A stretch of DNA of 64,000 bases from assembly GCA_001563335.1 (NCBI GenBank), contig LRSL01000109.1, positions 32,001 to 96,000 on the forward strand. Reading direction: 5' to 3'. This DNA comes from Candidatus Thorarchaeota archaeon SMTZ1-45 (GTDB taxonomy: Archaea > Asgardarchaeota > Thorarchaeia > Thorarchaeales > Thorarchaeaceae). Below the pieces are notes generated by a model that had not been told where the DNA came from, made no database searches, and saw only the letters and a program-made list of their open reading frames with translations. Below, piece by piece: positions 5,649-23,803 of the stretch (positions are counted from its first letter, which is position 1; every line of letters begins with the position of its first letter). The position numbers were made by a program, and so were the translations under genes.

Positions 5649-6341
5649 ATGAGAGTTGAGGACATGGAGAAATGCGATAATGTTATCGATAGAGCTGCAG
5701 AGGTCATTACAGCTGGTGGAATTGTCGCATATCCAACTGATACAAGTTATGGACTCGGATGTGATCCTAGAAACCGTGATGCTTTGGAACGACTTATTGC
5801 AGTAAAAAGACGTGATCGAAGACTTGGGTTTCCTTTATTATTTGCAGATGAGGCTCAGTGTGAGTTATATCATGATTTTCAAAGTCTGGAGAGAATAATC
5901 GTGAGAATATTCTGGCCTGGTGCACTCACCATAATTGTTGAGGCACGACCAGATGTTCCAGCACATATCACTGCTGGAAGGAGCACTATAGCTATCAGAG
6001 TACCAAATCATATAATCCCAAGAGGAATAGCTAGGAAGATCAGCGGCCCAATTATAGGCACAAGTGCAAATCGAAGTGGTGGACCAAACCCTTTCGAATT
6101 ATCAGTAGCTTTAGAGCAACTTGGTGATGAAGTTGATCTGTATATTGATGGAGGAGCTTCATCTGCTCAGGACAATTCCACAATAATAGGAGTTGAAGCT
6201 GCTGAAGCAGAAGGAGAGCCTCGCAACATTAAAATCTACAGAGAGGGTGCATTACCAATTTCACAAATTGAGGCAAGCTTGAAAGTGGATACGGACGCGT
6301 TGAGATTATGGAGCACACGAATCATTGATGCTGATATGTGA
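5649..6341 (+). CDS. tsaC: Threonylcarbamoyl-AMP synthase (TsaC/Sua5/YrdC)
   Basis: YPTDTSYGLGC, KRR, FWPGALT and TSANRSG motifs; start set at ATG 5649. Confidence 0.92.
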   Translation: MRVEDMEKCDNVIDRAAEVITAGGIVAYPTDTSYGLGCDPRNRDALERLIAVKRRDRRLGFPLLFADEAQCELYHDFQSLERIIVRIFWPGALTIIVEARPDVPAHITAGRSTIAIRVPNHIIPRGIARKISGPIIGTSANRSGGPNPFELSVALEQLGDEVDLYIDGGASSAQDNSTIIGVEAAEAEGEPRNIKIYREGALPISQIEASLKVDTDALRLWSTRIIDADM

Positions 6342-8186: not shown

Positions 8187-9461
8187 GTGGAAACAATGAA
8201 ACCAGACCTTCTCCTTACAAATATTGGACAGGTTGCTACACTAGCAGGACACAGTGACTCTCCAAAGACTGGAGTACAGATGAATGAGCTATCTATAATT
8301 GAGAACGGCGCTATAGCAATCAGAGATGGTAAAATCATCGCTGTTGGACCTACAAAAGAAGTTCTTTCACAATTGACTGAAGAGCCAAAACTTCCCGCAA
8401 TTGAATTCCCCGGAATGCTTGCTACACCAGGTTTCATAGATAGTCATACTCACCTTATTTTCGGAGGATCAAGAGAGCACGATTTTGCTATGAAACTTGC
8501 AGGGAAGTCGTATCTTGAGATCCTTGAAGCTGGTGGTGGGATTCTGAATACTCTTCGATCTACGAGAGCGGCAAGCCAAAGCGAGTTGGTTAGGAACTCA
8601 TTCTCTTATGCCGAGAGTATGTTGAGTATGGGATGTACTACAATTGAAGCAAAGAGTGGATACGGGCTTGATACAGAGAATGAGCTTAAGATGCTTAGAG
8701 CTGCGGAGAGTTTAAGGAAAAAGCTACCAATCAATCTAGTTTCAACCTTTATTGGAGCACATGCTGTTCCTCCGGAATATGAGGAGAGGACCGAAGAATA
8801 TGTGGACCTTGTCGTTGATGAAATGATTCCAGCTGTAGCTGAAAACAAGCTGGCAGAGTTTTGCGACGTTTTCTGTGAAGAAGGTGTTTTTGACATTGAC
8901 CAATCAAGGAGGATTCTTCTTGCGGCAAAAGGTAAGGGGATGAAGCTCAAAATTCATGCTGATGAAATCGTACAGCTCGGTGGAGCGTTTCTAGCTGCTG
9001 AAGTTGGAGCAGTCTCAGCAGACCACTTATTGATGGCATCGGATGATGGTCTTGAGGCGATGCTTAGAGCAGGTACAATTGCGACCCTCTTGCCTGCAAC
9101 AGCATTCAGCCTTGATACGAGTTATGCAGATGCGCGCAAGATGATAGAGATGGGATTACCTGTATCTCTTGCGACTGACTTTAATCCAAATTGCGCAAAT
9201 GAGTCTCTGTTCTTCACCATCGCGTTGTCGTGCTACAAGATGAAGATGACGCCCAGAGAGGCGCTCTCCGCAGTCACCATCAATGCGGCCCATGCCCTAG
9301 ACATAGGAGCAACCCACGGGAGCATTGAGGTGGGAAAAGCAGCTGATATCCTCGTACTTGACTGTCCCAATCCAGAGTACCTAACTTGGAGGTTCGGTGT
9401 CAATTTGGTTCACACTGTCATCTCAGATGGACAAGTAATTCATACAAAGCTGGGACCCTAG
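8187..9461 (+). CDS. hutI: Imidazolonepropionase
   Basis: PGFIDSHTH, GGGIL, EAKSGYGL, KIHADE and ATDFNP. Confidence 0.96.
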   Translation: METMKPDLLLTNIGQVATLAGHSDSPKTGVQMNELSIIENGAIAIRDGKIIAVGPTKEVLSQLTEEPKLPAIEFPGMLATPGFIDSHTHLIFGGSREHDFAMKLAGKSYLEILEAGGGILNTLRSTRAASQSELVRNSFSYAESMLSMGCTTIEAKSGYGLDTENELKMLRAAESLRKKLPINLVSTFIGAHAVPPEYEERTEEYVDLVVDEMIPAVAENKLAEFCDVFCEEGVFDIDQSRRILLAAKGKGMKLKIHADEIVQLGGAFLAAEVGAVSADHLLMASDDGLEAMLRAGTIATLLPATAFSLDTSYADARKMIEMGLPVSLATDFNPNCANESLFFTIALSCYKMKMTPREALSAVTINAAHALDIGATHGSIEVGKAADILVLDCPNPEYLTWRFGVNLVHTVISDGQVIHTKLGP

Positions 9462-11002
9462 CTCTCATAGAGAGGACCTGTGACTGACTCAACCGAAGCT
9501 ATAATATCACCAGACTTCATGAGTTCACGGATTTTCTTTATGTCTGGAGAAAGTGGTCGATCATTCTCCAGTTTGGAAACCCCGCTTCTTATGGTCTTGT
9601 GAGCCTCCTGCAGGGGATCTGACGGTTTCAGGGGAGCAAGATAATCAATGCCTTGAGCAGCACACATGTACTCAATCGCAACAACATTTTGTGAGTTCTC
9701 AAGAATATTTGCCGCCTTTCGTGCAGCTATTGTGCCCATACTAACATGATCTTCTTGGTCTGCACTTGTAGGAATTGAGTCGACACTCGCTGGATGCGCT
9801 AACACTTTATTCTCTGAAACGAGCCCTGCGGCAGTATACTGTGCAATCATCATCCCTGACTCAAGTCCCCCCTCAGTTGTTAGAAATGCTGGTAATTCGC
9901 TCAAATTTGGATTGACCAATCGATTGATTCGTCTCTCAGAGATATTTGCAATCTCAGATAATGCAATTCCAAGAAAATCCATTGCGAGCGCAACAGGTTG
10001 TCCGTGGAAATTACCTCCAGATATCACAATTCCGTCATCACCAAAAACCAGTGGATTATCAGTAGCGGAGTTGATTTCTGTTTCGAGAACACTATAGACA
10101 TATCGGATTGTATCCAATGATGCTCCCAATACCTGAGGAATACATCTTAGTGAGTAGGCATCTTGTACTTTCCCACAGTCAGCATGAGACTGGTTGATTT
10201 CACTATCTAGCAGGATCTTTCTTTGAGCTGAAGCTACATCTATTTGTCCTTCATGCGGGCGAAGAGAGTGAATCCTTTCGTCTGATGCCATCCTTGTTCC
10301 ACGTAATGCTTCAAGACTCATTGAGGAAGCAATGGTTGTATCGTAGATTAATCGAAGTGCATCATAGACTGTGATAACACCAACTGCAGTCATTGGTTGA
10401 GTTCCATTGATCAATGCGACTCCCTCCTTAGCTTGTAGCACAATTGGTTTGATTCCAGCCTTACGTAAGGCTTCTCCACCACTAACTAATTTGTCCGATT
10501 TGAAAGCTTCACCCTCACCAATGAGAACCAACGCTATATGAGCTAGAGGAGCCAAATCGCCACTAGATCCTACTGATCCCTGCTGTGGAACAACAGGAAG
10601 TACATCCTTGTTCAACATCTCAATCAGGGTTTCAATGACTTCTAGACGAACTCCAGAGTAGCCTTTCGCAAGTGCATTGACTCTGAGTAACATCATTCCC
10701 CGTACAATTTCTTTTGAGAATGGAGGACCCACTCCTGCACTATGGCTACGGATTAAGTTAACCTGAAGACGAGCTAAATCATCCTTGTTAATGGATACAT
10801 CTGCGAGATCTCCAAAACCAGTGTTTACTCCATATACAACAGCTCCCTCTTTGATTGCTTTTTCCACAACATCTCGACTACTTCTAATTCGCGGGATTGT
10901 TGATTCATGTAGGATTACTGGCTCTTTGTGCCGTGCCACTTGTACGACATCTTCTATAGTGAGACTCTCACCATCAACCATCACAGGCATTGTGTCCACC
11001 AA
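9458..11002 (-). CDS. hutH: Histidine ammonia-lyase
   Basis: VYGVNTGFG, LIRSH, GSVGSSGDLAPL (MIO), QDAYSLRC, GGNFHG and QEDHVSMG. Confidence 0.95.
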   Translation of the reverse strand: MVDTMPVMVDGESLTIEDVVQVARHKEPVILHESTIPRIRSSRDVVEKAIKEGAVVYGVNTGFGDLADVSINKDDLARLQVNLIRSHSAGVGPPFSKEIVRGMMLLRVNALAKGYSGVRLEVIETLIEMLNKDVLPVVPQQGSVGSSGDLAPLAHIALVLIGEGEAFKSDKLVSGGEALRKAGIKPIVLQAKEGVALINGTQPMTAVGVITVYDALRLIYDTTIASSMSLEALRGTRMASDERIHSLRPHEGQIDVASAQRKILLDSEINQSHADCGKVQDAYSLRCIPQVLGASLDTIRYVYSVLETEINSATDNPLVFGDDGIVISGGNFHGQPVALAMDFLGIALSEIANISERRINRLVNPNLSELPAFLTTEGGLESGMMIAQYTAAGLVSENKVLAHPASVDSIPTSADQEDHVSMGTIAARKAANILENSQNVVAIEYMCAAQGIDYLAPLKPSDPLQEAHKTIRSGVSKLENDRPLSPDIKKIRELMKSGDIIASVESVTGPLYES

Positions 11003-11103
11003 AGCCTTGGAAACACAGCAACAAGTGTGAACTAGTTACTGTCTGATGAGGTTCGTAGAAGCTCTCTTTAGTAGTTATCGTTAAATTTGAAAAATCCAAA
11101 AAG

Positions 11104-13153
11104 TCATGTCTCACCAAGAGTTTTTTGGACTAACTCTTCTATCAGCCCCTCCTTTGGAATAAATGGAAGAGAAATATGACCTTTGTTTCCTAATCTCTTA
11201 TTCCATTCAATCGTTGTTTCAATAGCATGATTATTTCTTGCCCAAGCACGACGTGCAACACCACCCATTACATCCCAATCGAGAGCTAAACGAATAATAG
11301 TATCAACACGTTCAGTGCCATCTAGAACCAGACCAAATCCACTATTGATTGCTTTTCCAGTACCCACACCACCACCGTTTGACAAAACACAGAGTGTCAT
11401 TCCACGAGCTACATTACCAGCCCAACATTGGTGCGCCATGTCACTCATAACATTGCTACCATCACGAATGTTTGCTGTTTCTCTGAATGGCGAGTCTGTC
11501 CCACCAGTATCATGGTGGTCACGTCCCAACATGATAGGGCCAACCCTTTTTTCACGAACCATCTTGTTGAAAGCTAGAGCAATGTCAACTCGACCAAGAG
11601 CATCTGCATACAAAATTCGTGCTTGAGATCCAACGACAAGTGCATTCTTCTCAGCATCTCGAATCCAAATGTAATTATCTCGGTCTTGCCCACGACGCTC
11701 AGGACTGATGCGTGACATTGCCATCTTGTCTGTTGCTGCAAGGTCTTCATGGCTTCCGCTTAGACAGACCCATCGGAACGGACCATAACCATAGTCAAAG
11801 CAGATTGGTCCCATGATGTCTTCAACATATGAAGGGAAGATGAAACCATCTGACTCGTTTTCACCATTCTTTGCAATTCTCCTGACACCAGCATCAAAAA
11901 CAGCCTTCATGAAGCTGTTACCATAGTCCCAGAAGTGGGACCCCCGTTTTGTCATAATCTCAATAAGTTCAAACTGTTTGCGGAGGGATTTGTCAACCAT
12001 CTCGTTGAACTTTTTTCGGTCTGACCGGAGGAGCTCACGTCCCTCTTCAAAGGTAACTCCCTGAGGTGTATATCCACCACCATATACGTCATGACATGAG
12101 GTCTGATCTGATGCAAGCTCAATCTTAATGTCATTTTGAACAACATAGTCCCAAAGATCAACAACATTCCCATAGTAACCTATTGAAACAGATTTACCAT
12201 TGGAACGATGATCTTCAACCCAATGGAAAATCTCATCAAGATTCGAAGAGTATCTGCTTAGCCAACCTTGTTCACTACGTGTTTCAATACGGCTTTTATC
12301 AACCTCAGCAATAATTCCAATTCCACCAGCAATCTCGATTGCCTTAGCCTGAGCGCCACTCATTCCGCCAAGTCCTGATGTCAAGAAGACTTTCCCACTT
12401 AGGTCACCATCATCAGGGATTCCTAGGTATAATCGTCCAGCATTCAAGAGTGTGATGTAGGTCCCATGGACAATCCCTTGAGGTCCTATATACATCCAAC
12501 CACCAGCTGTCATCTGACCATAGTTTGCAACACCCATGGCTGCAGCTTGATGAAATCCATCAAGCGTGTCAAACATTCCTACCATGAGACCATTGGTAGT
12601 GATTGCTCGAGGCGCATTCTTGTGGGAAGGGAACAGACCAATAGGATGTCCTGAATTGACGACAAGTGTTTGCTCATCTGTCATTACTTCAAGATACTTC
12701 TTGATTAATTGATACTGCATCCAGTTCTGGCACACCTGACCACTCTCTCCGGTAAGTTTAGGAAATCTAACAATTTACTCCGTAAGTGACCAGTTCATAT
12801 GGATACAAGGCTACATCAAAGTCCAGATTGTTGTCAATCATCAATTGTATTGCTCTTGCTTCAAGAATACCTTTGTACTCAGTGATTGGCTTGGCTTTTA
12901 TCTCACCAGGGGGTCTGTATCTGTATCCATAAATTCTTCCTCTGGATAACAGCTCAGCCAAAAATTCTGGAGCTAGGTGATTGTGCAGTTCTGAGGGCAC
13001 ATATCGAAGAGCGTTTTTGATTGAAATGATTGTGTCATGTTTATTGAGGTTATATCCTCTATCTGGAGCTCGTCTAATTCTAGGATCAAAAACTGGTTCT
13101 GGAGGAAGCTCTCCAGACAGTTTAATATGCATTGCTTTTGAAGGATCAGTCAT
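11104..13153 (-). CDS. hutU: Urocanate hydratase (long type), split into 13153-12778 and 12746-11104 by a 31-nt insertion; 672 aa if joined
   Basis: The N-part ends MIDNNLDFDVALYPYELVTYG. The C-part begins ESGQVCQNWMQY and has YGQMTAGGWMYIGPQGIVHGT, GLGGMSGAQ and GRDHHD. The exons total 376+1643 = 2019 nt in frame. Confidence 0.92.
12747..12777 (-). other. 31-nt insertion in hutU; putative BHB/BHL-type mRNA intron
   Basis: Contains in-frame TAG and TAA and is flanked by a CGGAG direct repeat. A 10-bp exon-exon helix, 3-nt bulge and central helix place the cuts so that the frame is restored. Confidence 0.6.
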
Positions 13154-13214
13154 ACAATAACCACATCCTATTAAGTTTCAATAACATCAGGTTAGTCACG
13201 TCTTATACAGGTTT

Positions 13215-16200
13215 TCATGAATTTGTTTTGTATTTCCTTGCAATCCTACCAATTGTCGCAATACTCCTTGAGATTTTGTGTTCTCTCCAGAGTTGTAGAC
13301 TAATTTCCCCGTATGTCAATCCTTTCTGTCTAAGCCTCGATATTTCTGAGATTTCAAAGGAGGTTACTCGTTTCCTCTTTGGTCTTGCGTCAATCATTTC
13401 ACATAGTTCAGATAGATTTTCAAGACGACTAGTAGCATTCTTGAAAAGAGGAAGATTATGTAAATTGCGAATAGATGCATGATGTACTATTTCAATCCCT
13501 TTTTTCTGTAACAGTGATTCGATATTGAAAGATTCCAGGATTTTTTTGATATGCCGCTTATTAGCTAAAGATCCAATTCCAACACGTTGACTAATTAATG
13601 AAGCATAACCATCACCATCTGCTATCCCTTGAAGAAATGGAATCTGAAAGTCCTGGGGGATTCTATGAATCCAATCAGCTTTTAGAGTGCTGTAGGTTTT
13701 TTTATCATTCGGACCTAGATTGAATATCACCTCTCTCATCCAAACAAAAAAAGGGCTGTCAATGCAAAGTTCACAAATTGAATCAAGTTCTCTTTCCAAA
13801 TACGAAATTCTTGAAGGACTCAGCATTGAGAATGAATTAGAAACATCTTCAAGGATTTTTTTCGACCATTCATATTTCTGACTGAGTAAAATCCTTAATG
13901 AATAAGAAGTCTTACTTGTAGGTTGGATGTACCCATCAGCAAGAATCATACCAAGAATATACATGAATTCTTGAAAAGGTAGTTTCAATTGCTTACAAAC
14001 TTCCAGTATTGATGAAAAATCAATATTCTTGATTGGAACTTCGATATAATCATAGTATACATTTTCTTCTACACGCAGTGGTAGCCATTTCCAGCCATTG
14101 CGAGGAGGATTTGTTGGAATCTCCTTAAGTATCTGCAAACCTCGGGGTAGGATTCCTTTAGTCCACGATAATATGGCGGTTTCGTGGACTTCAAGTAAAC
14201 TTGCTATGATATTTAATGGGTATCCTGTTTCAAACAAGTCTAAGAATCTGAAGTAGGCTTTTGTGTACTTGGTCATATCCTCAATGTTTTTCCATTGGTT
14301 CAGATATGGTTCAATATAGAGGTTCCTTCTTAAAGTGGAGAGATGATCAAATGAGTTTGCAAACAAAGAAGTTCTAAGCTTGTTTGCCTTGATTTTGTTT
14401 TTGATTGCTTGTTCAATATAGACTAGCAGTTGAGGTCTATTTGCTTCAAGTGTCCATCGCCTTGCCTTGGTTGGAGCTATTCCGATTCTGTCAGAGATTG
14501 TTAGAAGTTCGCTGTTCCTGATATTTTGTCTGCCCTTGAAATTTTCTTTCAATGTGAAGTATAGAATAGCATCAGATTTAAGCGACTTAAAATTGCTCAA
14601 AGTTGTTAAACCTGGATACTCTTTGAGCTTGACATTCAGTTGCTGCTGTGATATGACTCCGATATTTTCTAGAGATTCATAGAGTCTTATCGGTGAATGT
14701 TCTGTCTGGATTTTACTCCTTATTGAGTGAGGATTGACAACAATTCGAATGGGCCAAGGAGTAACACCGTCAATAATAGCTTTTGTTCTAGTAGAGCCTA
14801 ATTTCAACTTGCGATCGACATCACATTGTAACATCCCCTTTTCTAATAACTCTAGTATCTGATAGTATAATTCTAGATGTTTCCATTGTTTATCAGCTGT
14901 TGGCCAAGAATCGATTGACTCATCCATTTCTAAGTCTACTAGTTTTTGTTTGATAGTATCAGCATCTTGGAATTTGCCAAGCCGCTTGCGTATGGATTTC
15001 ACTCGAATTTGATTTTGGAGAACATTATTAATCATTCTAAATATAGTAGGATGAGAGTGTAGTTTTTGTGGATTCGATTTCTTAAAATATTTCTTAGCTT
15101 GAGTCATCCATTTAGTATAGGATTTATTCTCTTTTAGTCCTGGAAATTTCTGCTCAACAATTACTTCAAGTTTCCTCAAAGAATCAATTTGTTCATCCCC
15201 GATTTTGGGATAGTTACATGTTTGTACGGGTCCACCTTGAGAGTCAACGAGTTTACGCTTGGACTTCGTTTTTTTGGATTTAGCGTTCAATCTCTCCATG
15301 AGAAACCTTTCAAAAGAACGGCGTATGGATTCACCTACAACCTTTGTCCACTCTCGTTCCACCTCGAGTGCCCACAGTTCTCTAACAAGCTTTGGTGCTG
15401 GACCTTTCTTCATCCCCCTCACAAAAGAACGGGCATCCTTCAGTTTCTGCTTGTAGTCAGAGCTGAGCTTGACAGAGGGATGACGTGCAATGAGTTCCTC
15501 TAGGTCCTCCTCTGATTTTAATCTTGACCTGATAATCTCCTTGAGACGCTCACGCTCCTCCTCTGAGAGTTCACTGAAGAGCTCACGGAATCTTCTCCGG
15601 ATATCCTCCTCTTCAGAGGTCTCCTCATCCTCCCCAAAGAATGACCGGGGCTTGAGGGTCCTGTCGACCACACGTTCTCCTGTCAGAGCCTCAACAATGA
15701 CTCTCTCCTCAGACTCAGATTCCGACTCCTCAAGGCGTTCCACTAACTCTTCTACTCGACTGATGAACTCCTCTGGAATGTCGTCATCAAGTTCACTCTC
15801 AAAGGCCTCTTGTTCGTGAGAGGACTCTTCCTGTTCAATGAATTCAGAGAGCTCAAGCTCAGACATATCAGAATCAATCTCAGGTTCAATGACCTCGTTC
15901 GAGTCTTCAGAGGACTTCTCCACCTCTTGGGCGGCTTTAGCTCCAAGGTCCACGTCGAATTCTTCAACAGAGTCTACATCATCCTCAATTCTGGATTCCT
16001 TGGTGTCTTCATGCCTGAGTTCAGACTGGTCATCATGCTGAGGTTCTATCTTGGAGGACTCAGGCTCAGGTAACTCTGGAGTTTCGTTAGACTCGATTTG
16101 CTGGACTCCTTGGTTCTCTATCTCTTCTACCGGGTTAGAGGACGAGGTTTCCCCGTGCTCGATCTCTGGTGCTTCCTGTCTTGAGATCTTGTTCCTGAAG

Positions 16201-16811
16201 CCATCATCAAGTGATTCCACCTCATCATCAGCTGGCTCATGAGTTTCTGTGTTTTCAAGTTCTTCTTTCTCACACTCAACCTCGGACTGTGTTTCCCCCT
16301 CAGACTCGCTCCTAGTTTCCATTGCATAGACCATTCCAGTGCCTACATCCTCGTAAGACTCACTGGCTTCTGTTGCCTCCGAGGTTACTCCGTCATCACT
16401 TCCTTCTTCCACTTCACTGTCCTTTCTCGAAACCCCCTCCAGCTGATGGCTCAAATCATTGACATATTCGTCATGGAGTTCATCTCGTACTTCGTCAAGG
16501 TCATTCTCCAGATCATCCTCGAAGGACTCCTTAGCCTCCATATCTTTCTCCCGTTGAAGGTCATCGAATTCCTTCGCAGCTACCTCAGCAAGGTCTTCTA
16601 TCTCCTTGATCTTCGATCTGAGCTCATCAAACTCCTTAGCAGCCTCATTGGCTATCCACTCAATCTCCTCCTGACGATCAAAGTCCTCCGCTTCCTCCGT
16701 TGCATCCTTCTCTACCTCATCATGAACCTCTCTACTCTCTGGTTCGTCGGGAGTTTCCTCGCACTCTATCTCTGAATACCAGTCTGCACCGTCTGTTCGT
16801 TCATGCGGCAA
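13215..16811 (-). CDS. Large chimeric protein: acidic low-complexity N-terminus, repeated helical/HTH-like modules, double LAGLIDADG endonuclease domain, C-terminal HTH
   Basis: FMYILGMILADGY and FLQGIADGDGY motifs; C-terminal LRQKGLTYGEIS HTH; start placed at TTG 16811 overlapping the ATPase stop. Confidence 0.8.
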   Translation of the reverse strand: MPHERTDGADWYSEIECEETPDEPESREVHDEVEKDATEEAEDFDRQEEIEWIANEAAKEFDELRSKIKEIEDLAEVAAKEFDDLQREKDMEAKESFEDDLENDLDEVRDELHDEYVNDLSHQLEGVSRKDSEVEEGSDDGVTSEATEASESYEDVGTGMVYAMETRSESEGETQSEVECEKEELENTETHEPADDEVESLDDGFRNKISRQEAPEIEHGETSSSNPVEEIENQGVQQIESNETPELPEPESSKIEPQHDDQSELRHEDTKESRIEDDVDSVEEFDVDLGAKAAQEVEKSSEDSNEVIEPEIDSDMSELELSEFIEQEESSHEQEAFESELDDDIPEEFISRVEELVERLEESESESEERVIVEALTGERVVDRTLKPRSFFGEDEETSEEEDIRRRFRELFSELSEEERERLKEIIRSRLKSEEDLEELIARHPSVKLSSDYKQKLKDARSFVRGMKKGPAPKLVRELWALEVEREWTKVVGESIRRSFERFLMERLNAKSKKTKSKRKLVDSQGGPVQTCNYPKIGDEQIDSLRKLEVIVEQKFPGLKENKSYTKWMTQAKKYFKKSNPQKLHSHPTIFRMINNVLQNQIRVKSIRKRLGKFQDADTIKQKLVDLEMDESIDSWPTADKQWKHLELYYQILELLEKGMLQCDVDRKLKLGSTRTKAIIDGVTPWPIRIVVNPHSIRSKIQTEHSPIRLYESLENIGVISQQQLNVKLKEYPGLTTLSNFKSLKSDAILYFTLKENFKGRQNIRNSELLTISDRIGIAPTKARRWTLEANRPQLLVYIEQAIKNKIKANKLRTSLFANSFDHLSTLRRNLYIEPYLNQWKNIEDMTKYTKAYFRFLDLFETGYPLNIIASLLEVHETAILSWTKGILPRGLQILKEIPTNPPRNGWKWLPLRVEENVYYDYIEVPIKNIDFSSILEVCKQLKLPFQEFMYILGMILADGYIQPTSKTSYSLRILLSQKYEWSKKILEDVSNSFSMLSPSRISYLERELDSICELCIDSPFFVWMREVIFNLGPNDKKTYSTLKADWIHRIPQDFQIPFLQGIADGDGYASLISQRVGIGSLANKRHIKKILESFNIESLLQKKGIEIVHHASIRNLHNLPLFKNATSRLENLSELCEMIDARPKRKRVTSFEISEISRLRQKGLTYGEISLQLWREHKISRSIATIGRIARKYKTNS

Positions 16812-19800
16812 CTTCAGACCCCGAGTTGTTGATTTCCGATTGGACCATATCATGCACAGCGGCCCAAAGTGCATCATTGACTGGAGAGTCCAGAGTTGCC
16901 CTTGCCTCATTCAGTAACAAAATCACTACTTCGGTGATGTCGAAACCATCTCCAGCAATCATTCTGGAGAATGTCGTCAATAGAAGTACGAGTGGCTCAT
17001 AGTTGCCATCCGCAGCCATCTGAGCTAGTGGTTGGTATCTGCTGACAAACTGGTTAGTACACACAATGGATCTCACCTTCTCTTCGAGCTCTCCATCAGG
17101 CTCTACTCCATGATTGTCTGATTGATCTGTACTCTGTAGCTTCTTAATCTCGTCAAGTGCCATTCTCACCGCGGACATCACATCAGATGCTGTTACCTTA
17201 GCATCATGCTTGAATGAGCTGACCCTCCACTCAAGTTCCGAATTGAGCCGTGAGTGATAACGCTCAAGATGGTTGCTTGGCAATTCGCTGAGTGACAGGA
17301 GCAGTTTCAACTCCTCCACTATTTTTCCAAGAAATGACGGATTGAACTCTTTCATCTTTGAGATACACCAGATCAGATGATGAGCATCGAATGATACATG
17401 TGTATCATCTGGTCCTGCGAGCCTCGCAATATTACGAGTGATTAGAGCCCCAAGCCTTGATTTTTTGGTTTCAATGAGAGTCTTCAAGACCTTCTTGAAG
17501 AATGCACTATCCAACATTGTATAGAGTCTGAGTGCTCTAGGAATGTCTATCTTAATGGTTGCTAACCTAAGAGATAGTTCTCCTGATTTCAATGATTTAA
17601 GAGCGTGTGCAGACTTGGTCTGAAAATGAGGGTTCTGTGTGAAGAAAGGGCTCATGTGCTGAATAATCTCCTCATCAGTCACTGGTTTCCCAAGAGCAAG
17701 TTCTGGATGCAACACTACAATGTCATTGACCCGCACCCGCACTGGTCTGCTGATACTGGCAGTTCGAATCACAGCCTCACCGACTGGTAAGGATCCCATC
17801 ATCCGAATCTGGTCCTCGGTACAGTTCATCTGATCGCCGATGAGTTTTCGATCTGATCCCGTACCTCTACCGTGCATGATTATGTTCAGGGCTATTGTGT
17901 ATGCACTGCTTGTGAGTTCTGAGAACCCCGGTGCGATTAGAGTGAAGCCCACTCCTGCACTCCTCGACTCTTTCATAGTGGTGGTGATTGTTTCCACAGC
18001 TGCCTGTTTTGCACCATGCTCCTCATCCACCTTGACCCCAGTTTCAACTTTGAGAATCCTGTGAGACTCCTCAATGACCACGTTATACTTCAGCCCTTTC
18101 TTGTACACCTTCTCAGTCTTCTTCTTTGCCTCAAAGTAGCGAGCCACTCTGGATACGAACCAGAAGACAAAGAACGACTGCTCATCCTTGGATAGTGCAT
18201 ATAGTAGTATAAGACTAGGTTTCTTAGTCAGTTCTTTCATGGTGATACCAGAGGTCGTTCCAAAGACACTGTTGAGTGCACTACTACATAACTTGTTGAA
18301 CCTGATATAGAGTGCTCCCCACACATCCTCGTTTCCTCGTGTACTGTACTGGACCTCCTCCTTGATGAGCGGCAAGGTTTCAAGAAAGTCTGAGAGAACA
18401 ATAGCCAACCCAGGAGTGTTGGTTTCGCGGTCCCAGCCCAATCTCTCGAAGGTCAGTTCGATGACCAGCTCCATATACTCCTTGATGATTCCATGCGCAG
18501 GCATCGCAGCAATGATGATAGCCTTCATGTCATTGATAACTGAGTTGACATGCATGCCCTCACAAAACTCACTGAGAGAGAACCTTACAGGAGTGACAGT
18601 TTCATCACCTGGGGTGAGGACAAGAATGTCCTTCACCTTCCGGAGAAACCGAAGATGGTCCTCATTCTTTGAGAGTAACAGCTTGGTGAAGTTGATCCCC
18701 AGCCGATATAATTCTAGGGTGATGTTCGACTCAGTCACAGTTTTTCCGTTCCCAATGTCGCCGCCAATCACGCTGTGTGATGTCAGATCATTGGTTGGAA
18801 TCACGAAATCATCAGCGGGAGTTCCTGAGTCATCCAAGACCTTCCCAAGTCGGATACCATTAGTCTTGTTTCGTTCCTTCTGATCGCCCCTTCGGGTTGT
18901 GGGATTTGTACGAAATGAAGCATGGTCTGCAACTGAGATACCGAGATCGTTTCGTGCTAAGGAGAAGTAGACACTTGCCTCCTCAAGTGACAGAAGCGTT
19001 GTCCTACCAACTATCTCACCCTCAATCAGTCTGTTGGCTTCTTGAGGACTCTTCTGGGTTTCAATAGAGAGATGGTTCTGGGGATCAGCTGGGATGAGAG
19101 TGCCCCTTAATACTCCCGCTAGCTTCCTTGAGTATTTCTCAGCAATCGCTGCGTCTCGGTCCCAGCAGGTCGCGGAAACCTCAACCTCACACAGATGACT
19201 GTTGCTCAGTCTATCAATCTGTATCTGTAGAGACTCAGCCTTTTTGACAGCCTCCATGTCTGTCCTTGTCTTGGACTCCTGAACCTCACCAGAAAGCAGT
19301 ATTGACCTTGGCTTCGATATGGTCAGCTGTGCCCGTTCACTCTCAGTCTTGTACTGTTTCCCCAGTGACTGGACTGCCCGATTACTAGAGCGTTTTGGAA
19401 TGGCCCAGAACTGCACAATTCCGTTCTGTAGGCCAAGAAGAACCTCCATCATGACAGTGATTGCATCAATCCTCTGTCGTGGGTCGTCCACTGTAAGTGG
19501 TTCACCCAAGAGATATGTCGTCACAGACGTAGCAAATGGACTAATAGTTGGTGCATAAAACCTCGCGTGTACCTTTCGTTTGAAGCCCGAGAGGTTTCCT
19601 TTTACAGTGTCAGCGAGTGTTTCGAGACTCTCCGACAGTTCAGCATCTTTCCTTGCCCAGGTCAGATACAACACACGCATCTTGTTCCTCACACGTTCGT
19701 ACCGGAGCCCCACTGGAAAGTTAGATAGGACCATGACGCGTAGGATGTTGAAGAGAGGTTGATACTTGGACTGATCGGGGTCCTTGTTCAGCAGATGTTC

Positions 19801-20289
19801 TTCTGGGAACTCAGTCAGTTCGACAGCCCCAACCAGACAATCCTTTTTGATCACTCTCTGAGAGATTGCGATTCCAACACTTTGGGGAATGCTTGGGCTT
19901 TCTGGAGGTGATGATGGCACCCTTTGACCATACCACAGCAAGAGTAATGCGGTCACAATTCCAGCAATCATTATGGTTTCAAAGGGGTAGAGGAGTGCGA
20001 TCTGGATGAGAAGCAGGACTCCTCCGACAATGATCGCACCAATTGTGATGACGAATCCACTCAGCCAGAGAATAATTTTGTACTTTGATATCTGTGAAAA
20101 TGCAAGTGTACAAGATCCCAGAAAAAAAATGACACCTGAGAGGAGAAAAGCTTGGAGTTTTAGTTGGGCAGGTCCAAAGGGTACTATCGTTAATAACCAA
20201 AGGCTGATGTATGATGGCAGGAGAGTTGCCATTAAGACTAAACAGAGCTTTGTGATGACTGATCCAGCCCCAGACTTCTCTTCTGACAT
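16801..20289 (-). CDS. Membrane-anchored HerA/FtsK/VirB4-like P-loop ATPase
   Basis: About 4 N-terminal TM helices; Walker A GGDIGNGKT; Walker B YNVVIEESH; ESRSAGVGFTL; LPVGEAVI; GGAGG RBS. Confidence 0.85.
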   Translation of the reverse strand: MSEEKSGAGSVITKLCLVLMATLLPSYISLWLLTIVPFGPAQLKLQAFLLSGVIFFLGSCTLAFSQISKYKIILWLSGFVITIGAIIVGGVLLLIQIALLYPFETIMIAGIVTALLLLWYGQRVPSSPPESPSIPQSVGIAISQRVIKKDCLVGAVELTEFPEEHLLNKDPDQSKYQPLFNILRVMVLSNFPVGLRYERVRNKMRVLYLTWARKDAELSESLETLADTVKGNLSGFKRKVHARFYAPTISPFATSVTTYLLGEPLTVDDPRQRIDAITVMMEVLLGLQNGIVQFWAIPKRSSNRAVQSLGKQYKTESERAQLTISKPRSILLSGEVQESKTRTDMEAVKKAESLQIQIDRLSNSHLCEVEVSATCWDRDAAIAEKYSRKLAGVLRGTLIPADPQNHLSIETQKSPQEANRLIEGEIVGRTTLLSLEEASVYFSLARNDLGISVADHASFRTNPTTRRGDQKERNKTNGIRLGKVLDDSGTPADDFVIPTNDLTSHSVIGGDIGNGKTVTESNITLELYRLGINFTKLLLSKNEDHLRFLRKVKDILVLTPGDETVTPVRFSLSEFCEGMHVNSVINDMKAIIIAAMPAHGIIKEYMELVIELTFERLGWDRETNTPGLAIVLSDFLETLPLIKEEVQYSTRGNEDVWGALYIRFNKLCSSALNSVFGTTSGITMKELTKKPSLILLYALSKDEQSFFVFWFVSRVARYFEAKKKTEKVYKKGLKYNVVIEESHRILKVETGVKVDEEHGAKQAAVETITTTMKESRSAGVGFTLIAPGFSELTSSAYTIALNIIMHGRGTGSDRKLIGDQMNCTEDQIRMMGSLPVGEAVIRTASISRPVRVRVNDIVVLHPELALGKPVTDEEIIQHMSPFFTQNPHFQTKSAHALKSLKSGELSLRLATIKIDIPRALRLYTMLDSAFFKKVLKTLIETKKSRLGALITRNIARLAGPDDTHVSFDAHHLIWCISKMKEFNPSFLGKIVEELKLLLSLSELPSNHLERYHSRLNSELEWRVSSFKHDAKVTASDVMSAVRMALDEIKKLQSTDQSDNHGVEPDGELEEKVRSIVCTNQFVSRYQPLAQMAADGNYEPLVLLLTTFSRMIAGDGFDITEVVILLLNEARATLDSPVNDALWAAVHDMVQSEINNSGSEVAA

Positions 20290-20572
20290 GAATGACCTCC
20301 AACCTAGTTACTTGTACTCGTTTATCATCTCATATTTAGAAGATAGAAGACATTTCAGCGTTCGGTGGAATATAATTAAGGAATTATAGGGAAGAATTGC
20401 TGCTCTATGTGTTTTAGAATCATCCCGATTGCTAAATTTCGATTATGGGGTTTTATTTTATAAGAAAAAGGCTTATTCCGTGTATTTGATATATGCCAAG
20501 GTCCAAAAGTGCATATTAAAGGTCGGTTTTTCACAGTTTTTCATGTGGTTCGAGCATCTGTCATAAAAAAGG

Positions 20573-20815
20573 GTGAGTGAGAGAGCTAGATTGATTAGGT
20601 TTCATGCAGGTGAGTTCCTAGTTGAGGCATACCAGATGGTAGGAATACATGAAACAGGTGACGAACTCCTAGAGATCTTACAGAAGAATGGGCATCATAA
20701 GACAAAGAAACTTGTTAAGGAACTTCAGTGGGGGTTAGATCGTATCCCCTGTTGGGTGCTCGTCTATACTGTATATCAAAAGCTGGATCAGGAGGCAACT
20801 CAGAAGAAAGTTTGA
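20573..20815 (+). pseudogene. Probable truncated element gene whose frame runs into the antisense strand of the hutU remnant
   Basis: The first ~50 codons look protein-like; from ~20720 the frame overlaps the antisense hutU fragment. Confidence 0.35.
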
Positions 20816-20846
20816 TTGTCATTGCCTTGCTAATATCGAAACTCAT
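20715..20846 (-). pseudogene. hutU: Truncated second hutU 5' end (43 codons), probably the original host start
   Basis: MSFDISKAMTIKLSSELPPDPAFDIQYRRAPNRGYDL is 24/34 identical to the copy at 13153; both copies have GGATGTG upstream. Confidence 0.88.
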
Positions 20847-20923
20847 GGAAACACATCCATTGGTTGTATTTTCTATGAGTACTCCCTTCATAAAAGACTC
20901 GCTAGACAAAATGCTGAGGAGTA

Positions 20924-21268
20924 TTATGAGGGAGGTATGAGCACTTTGAATAAGCTATCTTGGGGTAAATCATCAATATCTAGAGAAGCAGTCCACAGAC
21001 CATCTTGTGACATGACTCCTATTGTTAATCCTTCATCATCAAGTCGAAGCAGATACTCAAGATGTTTGATGAGATTATTAATGGATTGTTTAACGTCTTT
21101 TCGAGTGTTAGGACATGGTTGCCTCGGAAGAGACACCTCAACTTCAATTCTCCAATTTTCTGAGGTTTCAGCATCACGAACAGTGAGAATTCGAACCCAA
21201 TCACTCTGATATAGCACTAATGCGGACTCTTCATTCTCGCTCAAAGACAGCTTGTTCAATGCAAGCAT
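20924..21268 (-). CDS. Hypothetical protein
   Basis: Downstream part of the 173-aa ORF; start moved to ATG 21268 to avoid overlap with the HTH gene. Confidence 0.65.
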   Translation of the reverse strand: MLALNKLSLSENEESALVLYQSDWVRILTVRDAETSENWRIEVEVSLPRQPCPNTRKDVKQSINNLIKHLEYLLRLDDEGLTIGVMSQDGLWTASLDIDDLPQDSLFKVLIPPS

Positions 21269-21326
21269 ACACTTTGATTTCAACTCAGAATAAGTCAGCA
21301 ATAGATAATCACTCCAAGTAAGGATT

Positions 21327-21587
21327 CTACCTAACAATCGAGCCATATTTGGCAAAGATTGCCCTTGCCTTTTCTTGGTTGACAACATAGAGTGTACTCC
21401 GCATGTCACCAAGATTGGGAATTTTTTCACAAAGGTCTGAACCAACCAAGCGGTCTAACGCAAAAGTTACTGTACGAAGTGGAACATTTGCTTCCTTGCT
21501 AATTACTCTTGGAGGTAGAGGACCTCTGGTTGTTAAATGCTGTAGAACACGAAGTGCACTTTTTGGTAATCTTATCAAGTGTCGCAA
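21327..21587 (-). CDS. Small winged-helix (MarR/ArsR-like) DNA-binding protein
   Basis: GPLPPRVISKEANVPLRTVTFALDRL...IPNLGDMR. Confidence 0.8.
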   Translation of the reverse strand: MRHLIRLPKSALRVLQHLTTRGPLPPRVISKEANVPLRTVTFALDRLVGSDLCEKIPNLGDMRSTLYVVNQEKARAIFAKYGSIVR

Positions 21588-21798
21588 AGATGATCACCAC
21601 CATAATGTACAATTGAAATTCTGGTTTTGTATTCATGTCACGTCCTTAGTTCAGAATTCGACATAATTGGCTCAGTTTGACTGTAGTTTTATGAAGCGAT
21701 AGCTTCCGAAATGGAACACATGGAAGATGGCCTAAGACATTGTGTTTTTTAGGTGAAATTGGAGGTTTCTACAATGGTTTGCTAGAGGTTTGTAACTA

Positions 21799-22929
21799 AT
21801 GAGTAGTGTCTGGACCAAGGCTAGGAAGAACACACCAGAGATTGATTGTGGTCTATGTGGTTTCACTACCTGTGGAGCTTTTGCACGATCAGTTGTCGTT
21901 GGAAGCGTGGAGATATCAGCTTGTCCTATTCTCGGTCTAGAGCGCTTTAGAGTAGAGAGAGAGGAGCTAAAAACCCTTTCAAGAGATGTGAAAAATACCG
22001 AAAAACCAGCTCCTGAGCAACCAGAAAGAGGTGTTCTTCTTTCAAAGCCTTGTACAGATTCTCCAGATCTACTCATGGCAGAGATGAGGATCTTCAATGG
22101 AGTATCTCCAGGAGATCCAATGAAATACGGAGTCCTTGATCCTTCAATACTCTGCTGGTTTTTAGACTGTGTTTCATCAAGATATGAAGACATGCGCTGT
22201 AGTAAAGAGCTTGCTTATGCATGGGGAAATATGGAGGAAATCAAAGTTCACATACTTAGAGATGGTCGAGTGAGAATGCGTAGAGCAAGAGGAGCGGATC
22301 ATGCGCTTGACTCGTTCAAAATTATCGAACGCACAGTTATGGGTGCGATAATTTGTAACTGTTGTGGGCAGGATCTTCTATCAGTTCTAGCTGGTCTTGT
22401 AAAGTCAACAGAAGAATATCATACCGTACTTAGAGCCGGGAGTACAGTGTTCCTGAACCGAGAGTTTGTTCAATGGATACCAAGCAATCAAATTCCAGAT
22501 ATAAAACCGGTTGCAGAGATGAGTAATCTGATTGATGAGCTCTACTCAGACATGACAAAGCGTGTTGATCAATTGATATCAGGAAACTATTCGAATGAAA
22601 GAACAAACGAAACACGCAGCAAGATATGCAAAATCATAAGTCTAATGGTCGATCCTCTAATGCGAGGAAACGAAACCATATTCCTAAGAGGGTTGGCACT
22701 TGCCTTCTTCATAGATAATGCGGTCATTGGTCTGAATTCTTTACATCAGCTATCAACTGAAGGACAGGTTGATCAAAAGTACGTTGTCAAACTCATGAGA
22801 ATAACAAAGAATTTGGATATGCAAGAGTATAAACCTGATACAATGAATGGCTCAGAGATTCTTGCATTTGCACACTGTAATAGAGTTGGTAGAGCATTCC
22901 AACTCTATGATAAATGGAAGAGAAATTGA
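21799..22929 (+). CDS. Fe-S cluster-binding protein with N-terminal putative Fe-S domain
   Basis: DCGLCGFTTCGAFA...CP motif, as in RnfB/AcsC N-terminal domains; also ICNCCG. Confidence 0.75.
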   Translation: MSSVWTKARKNTPEIDCGLCGFTTCGAFARSVVVGSVEISACPILGLERFRVEREELKTLSRDVKNTEKPAPEQPERGVLLSKPCTDSPDLLMAEMRIFNGVSPGDPMKYGVLDPSILCWFLDCVSSRYEDMRCSKELAYAWGNMEEIKVHILRDGRVRMRRARGADHALDSFKIIERTVMGAIICNCCGQDLLSVLAGLVKSTEEYHTVLRAGSTVFLNREFVQWIPSNQIPDIKPVAEMSNLIDELYSDMTKRVDQLISGNYSNERTNETRSKICKIISLMVDPLMRGNETIFLRGLALAFFIDNAVIGLNSLHQLSTEGQVDQKYVVKLMRITKNLDMQEYKPDTMNGSEILAFAHCNRVGRAFQLYDKWKRN

Positions 22930-22930
22930 A

Positions 22931-23233
22931 TTACATCATTTTGTGCCAAGCCATGGGTGGAATGCTTGACACATATGGGGTGTCTTTGTATCTCTCCAAC
23001 AGACTCCTTGCTTGATCCATATTCACATGGTATTTTGGTCGACGCATATCATGCAGGTTTGGAATTCGACGCAGAATCTTCTTGCTCAATAATTGCTTGA
23101 GTGCAAAACTAACAGTACGGGGAGCCATATCTAATTTGACACTGAGTTCCTTTGGACACATGGGCCCATCAATAATCAACGCACTCAAGATTGTGAAGGT
23201 GCTTCGGGGAGTTCTACCAGCTCTTATCGCCAC
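22931..23233 (-). CDS. Small winged-helix DNA-binding protein, paralog of 21327-21587
   Basis: GPMCPKELSVKLDMAPRTVSFALKQL...IPNLHDMR. Confidence 0.8.
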   Translation of the reverse strand: MAIRAGRTPRSTFTILSALIIDGPMCPKELSVKLDMAPRTVSFALKQLLSKKILRRIPNLHDMRRPKYHVNMDQARSLLERYKDTPYVSSIPPMAWHKMM

Positions 23234-23434
23234 CTTTCAGTTCCTCCAAGATTCTTTTCAACATTTTTGAGTTATAGAATTAGAATATCTATTTGTGTGA
23301 AATCAATGGGTTTGAAATATACAGGACAACCTATGAAAGGAGCTAAAAACCGAAACAACTGTTGCGGATTTGAGACGTAAAGTGTAGGATTGAGATTCTC
23401 CTAAAACATATCAGGAACGTTGTAGCAATTAGCA

Positions 23435-23803
23435 GTGGTGCATGGATTGGCAGGGATTGTGTTCTTCAAAACAACGATGCTCCAAGAAATAGTTGAATTC
23501 TATGTGAGCGATGTGGGAATGTATGTGTGGTTAGAGCAAGAGGATTGCATCATTCTTAGTCATGGAAATCTTCTCCTGGGATTCTGCCATCGTGAGTCTT
23601 CAGATGTGGAGGGATTAATTACATTCTTTTATCCCACAAGAGAGGATGTTGACGCAATGTATGAAATGCTAAGCTATATCGCCACCTCTCAACCCGTGGA
23701 GAATGAGAAGTATCAGATTTACCAGTTCTTCGCTCAAGATCCAGAAGGAAGAATATTAGAGTTTCAGACGTTCTTGCATCCAATTGAACCAATTGGTTTC
23801 TAA
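23435..23803 (+). CDS. VOC/glyoxalase family protein
   Basis: C-terminal FFAQDPEGRILEF. Confidence 0.85.
   Translation: MVHGLAGIVFFKTTMLQEIVEFYVSDVGMYVWLEQEDCIILSHGNLLLGFCHRESSDVEGLITFFYPTREDVDAMYEMLSYIATSQPVENEKYQIYQFFAQDPEGRILEFQTFLHPIEPIGF

Follow-up and report, generated by a model that had tools for sequence, protein, structure and literature searches.

The urocanase gene hutU of Candidatus Thorarchaeota archaeon SMTZ1-45 is interrupted, and a second, partial copy of its start lies close by. Both are found in the 64-kb stretch of DNA analyzed here (contig LRSL01000109.1 of assembly GCA_001563335.1, positions 32,001 to 96,000; hereafter the window), where they bracket a gene for a large LAGLIDADG protein and a gene for an ATPase. 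The downstream part of hutU, exon 2 (11104-12746, reverse strand; listed open reading frame (ORF) 11104-12735, 543 aa), holds codons from about 126 to 672, including the stop, and the upstream part, exon 1 (12778-13153, reverse strand; ORF 12767-13153, 128 aa), holds 125 codons plus one base. The Pfam domain Urocanase_N is split between the two, with its positions 1-43 in the 128-aa ORF and 48-127 in the 543-aa ORF, the latter also carrying Urocanase and Urocanase_C. Between the exons are 31 nt (12747-12777, reverse strand). The upstream frame reads TYG-V-N-C-stop, meeting an in-frame stop 3 codons into this insert, and the downstream frame holds ESGQVCQNW. Excising the 31 nt fuses TYG with ESGQ in frame (TYGESGQ), and the two exons are both intact over 672 codons.

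Upstream, 61 nt separate the hutU ATG from the stop of the LAGLIDADG gene (13215-16910, reverse strand, 1231 aa, with a likely real start near 16877), the start of which is overlapped by the gene for a membrane-anchored HerA/DUF87-like ATPase (16801-20289, reverse strand, 1162 aa). There follows an intergenic region of probable donor origin (20290-20572, assigned to no strand) which contains no ORF with homologs and does not match the hutU loci of relatives. It separates the ATPase gene from a divergently oriented fragment, the first 50 codons of an HD/B12-binding/radical-SAM gene (20573-20722, forward strand), which is cut off at the junction and would form the right end of the imported DNA. 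The product of this fragment is 52% identical to the N-terminus of G015:C244, a protein of 1038 aa with Pfam HD, B12-binding and Radical_SAM domains, and it breaks off exactly where the hutU remnant begins. The remnant (codons 1-41, 20724-20846, reverse strand) adjoins the native upstream genes and is the only other place in the 3.5-Mb genome that matches hutU; the match runs from 20837 to 20724 and covers residues 3-40 (38 residues) with 63% identity and E 1.8e-9. In an alignment to five relatives its homology stops exactly at 20724, after codon 41, and also covers about 60 nt of the upstream leader. An initial annotation of this DNA had recognized the two hutU N-termini, the full one starting at 13153, and had placed the LAGLIDADG gene ~60 bp from the hutU start, both as we find them. 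Its 43-codon remnant holds as an open frame but exceeds the 41 codons of homology, and of its statement that only an ATPase and a LAGLIDADG protein lie between the N-termini, both genes stand but the HD/B12/radical-SAM fragment was missed. On the other side of hutU, the ORF list of the window has hutH (9458-11002, reverse strand).

The source is a metagenome-assembled genome of 119 contigs that is 88% complete. A chimeric assembly of the locus, which the initial annotation had named as an outcome that would undo its interpretation, is ruled out at the left side by contigs from the runs of two other studies, which span 12167-13720 and 12661-13381 with 0 differences and so bridge both the insert and the left junction. 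At the right junction the depth is continuous in the other-study runs, and none of the contig pieces listed is shown to span 20723/20724. A contig from run X4, which derives from another sediment sample, matches exon 2 up to window position 12735 and then continues into an intron-less junction of the ELVTYG type; an intron-less hutU of a relative therefore shares the habitat.

Interrupted hutU genes are not confined to the window. A family-wide search of 86 genomes identified hutU in 80, with many N-terminal frames ending early, and 20 of the short-frame loci were fetched and aligned to intact hutU (G083 was left out; frames of at least 659 aa were taken as uninterrupted). Four of the 20 loci, in genomes G015, G075, G099 and G101, have an insert of 31-32 nt at the same position as in the window (site A). 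Site A is thus occupied in the window and in metagenome contig L081, whose insert is the same as those of G099 and G101, and in 5 of the 80 hutU-bearing family genomes. Eight more loci (among L066-L074), in genomes G047, G059, G060, G070, G071, G090, G091 and G093 and belonging to 6 genera, have an insert of 29-30 nt at a second position, site B, at codon about 204 between NYGQ and MTAGG. The remaining short frames comprise a 1-nt frameshift in G063 and insert-free genes in G100 and G046, the others of the remaining seven being contig-end cuts. G088:C103, considered as a sixth site-A case, was rejected because its short frame reflects a contig end and its junction is intron-less. The G063:C15 gene (L069), likewise intron-less, has its single-base frameshift at codon 166, through either sequencing error or pseudogene formation.

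All of the inserts share one layout: an outer exon-exon helix, a 4-nt central helix formed by exon 1 with the 3′ end of the insert, two 3-nt bulges, and an inner hairpin. This corresponds to the motif of archaeal introns called bulge-helix-bulge (BHB), defined in the relevant passage of PMC5829648 as two 3-nt bulges with a 4-bp helix between them at the exon-intron boundaries. In the window the outer helix has 10 bp, the central helix is ACGG/CCGG (3 bp plus A.G) and the bulges are AG|U and AG|A; the pseudo-palindrome that the initial annotation had proposed as a nuclease site is real, but is the outer helix of this motif. BHB introns are cut after the second base of each bulge, and such cuts would excise exactly the 31 nt needed. 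The boundaries of the insert slide by a few bases within a repeated GGAG, and the coordinates given here assume this cut.

At site B the proposed pairing is satisfied in 96% of 151 cells, as opposed to 31-50% with slid partners, and seven pairs are changed on both sides, including an exon-intron pair (UA/CG) in the 4-bp central helix, a level that 0 of 500 shuffles reach. A synonymous difference between Tyr codons on the exon side (UAU/UAC) is accompanied by the corresponding A/G change on the intron side. The central helix is canonical in six of the eight site-B sequences (AUGG/CCAU or ACGG/CCGU). At site A, where there are only four distinct sequences, 82% of cells pair compared with 25-46% for slid partners, and three pairs are compensatory; the central helix is canonical in G015 (ACGG/CCGU), 3 bp plus A.G in the window and G075, and a relaxed 2 bp in G101. 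The exon sequence around site A also differs between carriers and non-carriers: an identical 16-nt 5′ exon flank occurs in all 5 distinct site-A alleles and in 0 of 32 intron-less alleles, and 8-10 of the 10 outer-helix pairs form in site-A alleles versus 5-8 in intron-less ones.

The interrupted genes are under strong purifying selection. The ratio of nonsynonymous to synonymous substitution rates (dN/dS) between genomes with an identical intron is 0.04 (G090/G091) or 0.10-0.12 (G099/G101/L081), and open frames of 674-678 codons result when the site-B intron is spliced out in silico from five genomes. The interrupted hutU genes must therefore be functional, and the insert would have to be removed. 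Candidate machinery is present in the form of two EndA paralogs, G000:C29 and C69 (PF01974, above cut-off), in the window's genome, which, by analogy, we take to be alpha and beta subunits; the Asgard EndA is described in an excerpt of PMC5829648 as an (alpha-beta)2 enzyme with a broad-specificity loop that permits relaxed motifs.

Two other explanations of the insert have to be considered. If hutU were a pseudogene, the 31 nt could be a repair scar or footprint that is never removed, as might be suspected from the in-frame stop 3 codons into the insert, from the weak inner hairpin and unremarkable folding energy in the window, and from the fact that no RNA run with the window sequence was found. 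We regard this as very unlikely given that inserts of the same site, length and architecture are present in 4 other genomes and one metagenome contig, that these show covariation with dN/dS of 0.04-0.12 in the intron-bearing genes, that both exons are intact over all 672 codons, and that conservation of the 16-nt exon flank and of the strengthened outer helix is confined to intron carriers. Programmed translational bypass of the T4 gene 60 type, in which ribosomes would take off at a GGA codon, hop the 31 nt and land on a matching GGA, is scarcely credible. The window does have matched GGA codons (12781-12779 and 12750-12748), and landing at the second would restore the frame, but neither G015, G075 and G101 nor any site-B insert has such a match, while every one of them fits the BHB layout; with the GGA match found in no other case, bypass is rejected. 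The comparisons therefore establish, at the level of sequence, the BHB character and recurrence of the insert and purifying selection on the genes that bear it, and we consider it highly probable that the insert is a spliced BHB intron. The mini-intron of the initial annotation belongs to a real class of intron.

The two hutU exons appear to have different histories. Whilst hutU is present in 30 of 41 related genomes, the comparison was made with the 20 genus loci that were returned, which have open frames of 609-704 aa. The junction ELVTYGESGQ is uninterrupted in 19/19 genus relatives read, and at six loci (L004, L007, L009, L010, L011 and L012) the hutU start directly adjoins homologs of window 20930-21927, so that, compared with them, the 7.5 kb from 13153 to 20724 represents an insertion. 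In sliding windows, the nucleotide identity between hutU and its nearest relatives amounts to 58-67% for nt 0-300, 82-86% for the two windows that follow (nt 300-480), and 72-89% beyond. At the protein level exon 2 is 86-90% identical to L004-L008 and L010 (90% for L004, 89% for L005, 88% for L006), as against 72-77% for exon 1 (72%, 76% and 72%, respectively), the identity of which to the whole family is flat at 68-80%. The remnant is 88% identical to L006 and G016 and 83% identical to G002 and G021, and within the genus (n = 18) its identity correlates with that of exon 2 (Spearman 0.49, p 0.04) and anticorrelates with that of exon 1 (Spearman -0.53). Maximum-likelihood trees place exon 2 within a genus subclade of 7 rows (support 99/98). 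Exon 1 lies outside its own subclade and is sister, with moderate support (94/78), to exon 1 of G075, a genome of a different genus that carries the same LAGLIDADG and ATPase gene pair. The initial annotation had suggested comparing empty with occupied sites and building separate trees, with the remnant predicted to group with the 3′ part of hutU and the 5′ end to be foreign, and this is the pattern obtained. Exon 2 and the remnant are thus identified by these comparisons as native to the lineage and exon 1, at least from nt 1 to about nt 300, as foreign, and we are confident that exon 1 was imported together with the ATPase-LAGLIDADG cassette.

The ends of the inserted DNA are not those of a bounded element. 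No integrase, transposase or other recombinase domain was detected in it by Pfam, as the initial annotation had noted; no terminal, end, att-core or target-site repeats are present at its ends; and Rfam has no match at E <= 1 in 10500-22000. An integrase, transposon or miniature inverted-repeat transposable element was rejected on the lack of a recombinase domain and of terminal or target-site repeats, and because the intron is single-copy in the genome. An integrase-mediated island with a replacement gene end was set aside for want of a recombinase and end repeats and because the right end falls inside a truncated gene. Since the inserted DNA stops inside a truncated donor gene, it appears to be a copied stretch of donor chromosome and not the bounded element of the initial annotation. 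As read from the sequence, the inserted run extends from the beginning of the donor's next gene across an intergenic region, through the ATPase and nuclease genes, and into hutU exon 1 and its leader, with a right junction that, lying within the truncated donor gene and lacking end repeats, is apparently illegitimate.

Comparable remnants are found elsewhere. The last codons of the remnants are 41 in the window, 94 in G101 and 104 in G100, all short of codon 125, which fits resection away from a break at site A. In G100:C96 (L064 64-643) the hutU remnant is in two pieces and 90% identical to that of G101 (L063 3757-4396), the remnant in both genomes being itself broken by about 270-310 nt of unassigned sequence; the two genomes differ by a clean 2.4-kb segment. 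The G100 state would fit either loss of a cassette or a remnant older than the cassette. When the far flank of the G075 insertion was compared with other genomes of its genus, no homology was found in the flanks compared, and so no clean two-sided insertion was seen there. The genes just upstream of hutU also vary within the genus, being for a NosD-like beta-helix protein and a flavodoxin in G015 (L059 1403-4201), and a 173-aa ORF and an Fe-S protein gene in the window (20847-23436). Synteny resumes further out, so the region upstream of hutU is a variable spot.

In the LAGLIDADG protein an acidic N-terminal half is followed by an array of helix-turn-helix (HTH) units, then by the double-motif LAGLIDADG domain, and finally by an HTH at the C-terminus. 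Its Pfam LAGLIDADG_3 match scores 27.8 bits against a cut-off of 22.5. The two motifs read ILGMILADG and LQGIADGDG, and the Asp before the last Gly of each (D63, D171) is invariant in 25 homologs. An AlphaFold2 (AF2) model of the C-terminal 302 aa, built with these 25 homologs, has a predicted local distance difference test score (pLDDT) of 92, and Foldseek places it closest to I-SceI (E 1.3e-7) and I-DmoI, with further matches to I-WcaI, I-AniI and WhiA. A profile search of Protein Data Bank (PDB) sequences with the LAGLIDADG alignment returned nothing below E 0.05. With two motifs bearing their acidic residues on a modeled double-domain fold of the alpha-beta-beta-alpha-beta-beta-alpha type, the protein has the features of a LAGLIDADG homing endonuclease, and the model supports a nuclease fold with intact motifs.

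The ATPase has N-terminal membrane helices, no Pfam match, and weak matches to HerA, mad8 (PADLOC, E 1e-7 to 4e-3) and CedD; its Atlas neighbors are DUF87/HerA_C proteins. It is 73% identical to the ATPase of G014:C67, and the ATPase-LAGLIDADG pair recurs at 8 other places in the genus as well as in G075. Comparison with these relatives indicates that the nuclease protein is a mosaic. Its residues 1-540 are 62-65% identical to the G014:C67 protein, which belongs to a cassette upstream of pccB, versus 8-27% to the hutU-type proteins of G075 and G101, and for residues 541-1231 the relationship is reversed, with 22-32% identity to G014:C67 versus 34-56% to the hutU-type proteins (window 13215-16910 was compared with L049:4794-8666). 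The break near residue 540 coincides with a step in GC content near 15250, from 0.34-0.38 below to 0.47-0.50 above. A genus-type ATPase and N-terminal half thus appear to have been joined to a hutU-type targeting half, which, with hutU exon 1, has an origin other than that of the ATPase and N-terminal half.

The structural comparison raises the alternative that the LAGLIDADG protein is a domesticated, non-cutting regulator like WhiA, or that ATPase and nuclease form a defense-type pair, the position at hutU then reflecting island transfer with no homing. The Foldseek match to WhiA extends over 277 columns, both the C-terminal HTH and the HTH array would suit a regulator, the HerA and mad8 matches of the ATPase in PADLOC, weak and partial as they are, would suit defense, and one LAGLIDADG subfamily has a conserved place upstream of the sec61beta-rpl44e-rps27e-eIF2alpha genes in many genomes. 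WhiA, however, is not known to have the two motif acidic residues, and their retention in all 25 homologs does not fit a WhiA-like regulator with lost catalytic residues. The patchy distribution of the family (34 of 86 genomes), the replacement of neighboring genes with remnants left behind, and the absence of any PADLOC model matching the LAGLIDADG protein also argue against a regulator or defense function, which would in addition leave the link to introns unexplained. We consider this alternative improbable.

The link to introns is close for those LAGLIDADG genes that belong to the hutU-type subfamily. The G075 and G101 proteins of this subfamily are 44-46% identical to that of the window and 60% identical to each other. 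In all four records that have such a gene (the window, G075, G101 and L081) it lies directly upstream of a hutU with the site-A intron, ending 50-140 nt before the hutU start. A relative with 36% identity is encoded upstream of hutU in G093, where the intron is at site B. When coordinates were cross-read in the 80 hutU-bearing genomes, no LAGLIDADG match was found beside any of the other 67 hutU genes, and a LAGLIDADG gene adjoins hutU in 4 of the 80. The gene is thus optionally present at a fixed genomic site among related genomes. Taken together, the sequence data document the anatomy of the locus and a recurrent linkage between nuclease gene and intron, and this recurrence supports the initial annotation's analogy to collaborative homing.

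The wider LAGLIDADG family includes subfamilies tied to hutU, sec61beta and pccB. At least 10 records (L099, L050, L038-L042, L082, L083, L085 and L088) have a member of one subfamily directly upstream of the sec61beta-rpl44e-rps27e-eIF2alpha cluster, with a copy of 583 aa in the window's own genome (L099, G000:C24, 371-2122), and no introns were seen in the coding sequences of that cluster beside the LAGLIDADG genes. ATPase-LAGLIDADG cassettes also occur upstream of a pccB-like carboxyltransferase gene, and with them come partial copies of this gene, 78-84% identical (L049 10075-10304 versus 10905-10995 and 11922-12151; L052 1-547 versus 5682-6229), which may be remnants comparable to the one at hutU. 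Just upstream of the G014:C8 cassette, a methyltransferase gene is flanked by a direct duplication of 100 nt (82%; L050 3913-4012 versus 5725-5824).

Our best explanation for the locus as a whole, to which we assign a probability of roughly 0.6, is that a stretch of donor chromosome was copied into hutU by a nuclease-driven event resembling collaborative homing and involving a BHB intron. The donor would have been another Thorarchaeota lineage whose hutU bore the intron and had, a short way upstream, a free-standing double-motif LAGLIDADG gene together with a gene for a HerA-like membrane ATPase. The nuclease would have cut the intron-less hutU at or near the intron site (codon 125/126), and the downstream end would have been mended by homology within hutU. 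Synthesis would then have continued across the intron and the donor exon 1, through the genes for the nuclease and the ATPase, and 50 codons into the next donor gene, after which the copied DNA would have been joined illegitimately to the resected upstream end of the recipient at hutU codon 41. Such an event would leave 41 native codons as a remnant, 7.5 kb of DNA from the donor, and a hutU of hybrid origin in which a foreign exon 1 and a native exon 2 are separated by the 31-nt intron. The host tRNA-splicing endonuclease and ligase would remove the intron from the mRNA, so that urocanase would still be made, and the intron would split the presumed nuclease target, so that the carrier would be immune, as is the logic of collaborative homing. 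We infer splicing in vivo, the activity of the nuclease, its cut site, and the order of these events. For collaborative homing itself, adjacency and co-occurrence are seen (4/4 at site A and one case at site B); whether the nuclease targets the intron site we judge to be evenly balanced.

Several observations count against this explanation. The foreign tract can be followed only to about nt 300 (about codon 100), short of both the intron at nt 375 and the codon 125 claimed in the initial annotation, because nt 300-375 is conserved in all alleles. The window intron is the weakest and least canonical example, with a central helix of 3 bp plus A.G and an inner hairpin of 4-5 pairs, and its folding energy is no better than that of shuffled sequences (z -0.05 and -0.36), so that the structural case rests on comparison between sequences; among the RNA runs listed, none containing the window stretch was found. 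The nuclease fold is shared with WhiA, a non-cutting regulator of the same LAGLIDADG-plus-HTH layout. The intron is not special to this genome, since it occurs elsewhere in the family, with no adjacent LAGLIDADG gene at site A in G015 and G099, and the same holds for seven of the eight site-B carriers. Conversely, the coding sequences beside LAGLIDADG genes of the sec61beta and pccB subfamilies are intron-free, and the intron is therefore no general partner of these nucleases. Site-A introns of different genera have little in common beyond their architecture, so no recent homing between lineages is seen. Finally, a remnant is present in G100 in the absence of both the nuclease gene and the intron; remnants could therefore predate or outlive cassettes.

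Some of these observations would be accommodated if intron and cassette were independent, the cassette targeting the hutU 5′ end or the region upstream and the intron being an older, vertically inherited passenger of the donor allele. The site-A introns that lack a nuclease gene, the deep divergence of intron sequences between genera, and the LAGLIDADG subfamilies without an intron partner are all in keeping with independence, and remnants ending at codons 41, 94 and 104 would also suit a cut nearer the 5′ end. On the other hand, independence does not account for the adjacency of all four hutU-type LAGLIDADG genes and the G093 relative to intron-bearing hutU genes, with none at the other hutU genes of the 80 genomes, nor for the pairing of the G093 paralog with the other intron site, and every remnant examined (window, G101 and G100) ends before codon 125, as resection from a break at site A predicts. 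We therefore consider independence the most serious of the alternatives, although an unlikely one.

The nuclease-driven copying proposed here has parallels in several known systems. In the collaborative homing described for cyanophage S-PM2, free-standing F-CphI is encoded beside an intron-bearing psbA (Zeng et al. 2009, as described in PMC6083498). The hutU locus similarly has a free-standing endonuclease gene beside a target gene with an ORF-less intron at a conserved site, an arrangement that would confer immunity on the carrier and mobility on the intron. However, the S-PM2 intron is a group I ribozyme and the hutU intron a 31-nt BHB intron of the protein-spliced type, and the S-PM2 nuclease is endonuclease VII-like and encoded by a phage, whereas that of the hutU locus is a LAGLIDADG protein of a cellular Asgard chromosome with predicted cleavage activity. 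The hutU-locus nuclease is also an 800-1280-aa multi-HTH protein, often coupled to a HerA-like ATPase. The intronless homing of the free-standing T4 endonucleases SegF and SegG, cited in the same account (PMC6083498), resembles the hutU locus in its optional nuclease gene between conserved genes, in spread by break repair, and in co-conversion of flanks. The hutU locus differs in lying on an archaeal chromosome and in having one side resolved illegitimately, leaving a remnant and a truncated donor gene.

Amongst archaeal introns, that in the cbf5 pre-mRNA of Crenarchaeota, given in a passage of PMC2738675 as 16-44 bp and too short to encode a nuclease, is one close parallel: like the hutU intron it is a short BHB intron lying inside a gene for a protein, with patchy gain and loss (as far as excerpts of PMC2738675 and PMC7714728 describe it). 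The hutU introns differ from it in their gene, in occurring in Thorarchaeota (Asgard), in occupying two sites in one gene, and in their link to a neighboring LAGLIDADG gene. Archaeal rRNA introns of the I-DmoI type likewise combine a BHB intron with a double-motif LAGLIDADG nuclease, I-DmoI being among the best structural matches here, but in these the nuclease gene lies inside the intron, whereas at hutU it lies outside, upstream of the host gene. Phage 21 and e14 integrate into icd with a replacement gene end, and so, as at hutU, carry a substitute end of the target gene, keep the gene intact, and leave a duplicate fragment; the hutU insert has no integrase and no att core repeat, and one of its boundaries lies inside a truncated, unrelated gene. 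In the passages of a 2020 paper that concern them (PMC7714728), reports of BHB introns in archaeal mRNA are limited to cbf5 (Crenarchaeota) and one case in a 5′ untranslated region in Haloferax. Our literature search turned up no report of introns in hutU, of BHB introns within the coding genes of Asgard archaea, or of free-standing LAGLIDADG genes of this kind in archaea, bearing in mind that the supplements of papers may list further mRNA introns.

Introns occupy two sites in this metabolic gene in a total of 13 Thorarchaeota genomes and are attended by covariation and purifying selection, which widens the known reach of mRNA splicing by protein enzymes among the archaea most closely related to eukaryotes. 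How ORF-less mini-introns could move is suggested by their repeated linkage to neighboring free-standing LAGLIDADG genes and, if this is correct, collaborative homing would extend from the group I introns of phages to the BHB introns of cells. More speculatively, and as an idea that we think rather doubtful, Thorarchaeota may carry a family of modular, possibly self-transmissible homing cassettes in which the membrane-anchored, HerA/FtsK-like ATPase might move DNA between cells and the C-terminal half of the nuclease protein (HTH array plus LAGLIDADG) would be swapped to retarget the cassette to hutU, pccB or the sec61beta operon, helping to spread BHB mini-introns at hutU. The mosaic nuclease protein and its ATPase partner point to undescribed, retargetable selfish cassettes that reshape gene ends in Asgard chromosomes. 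If this were true, such modular cassettes would constitute a route of intron gain in the archaeal group closest to eukaryotes.

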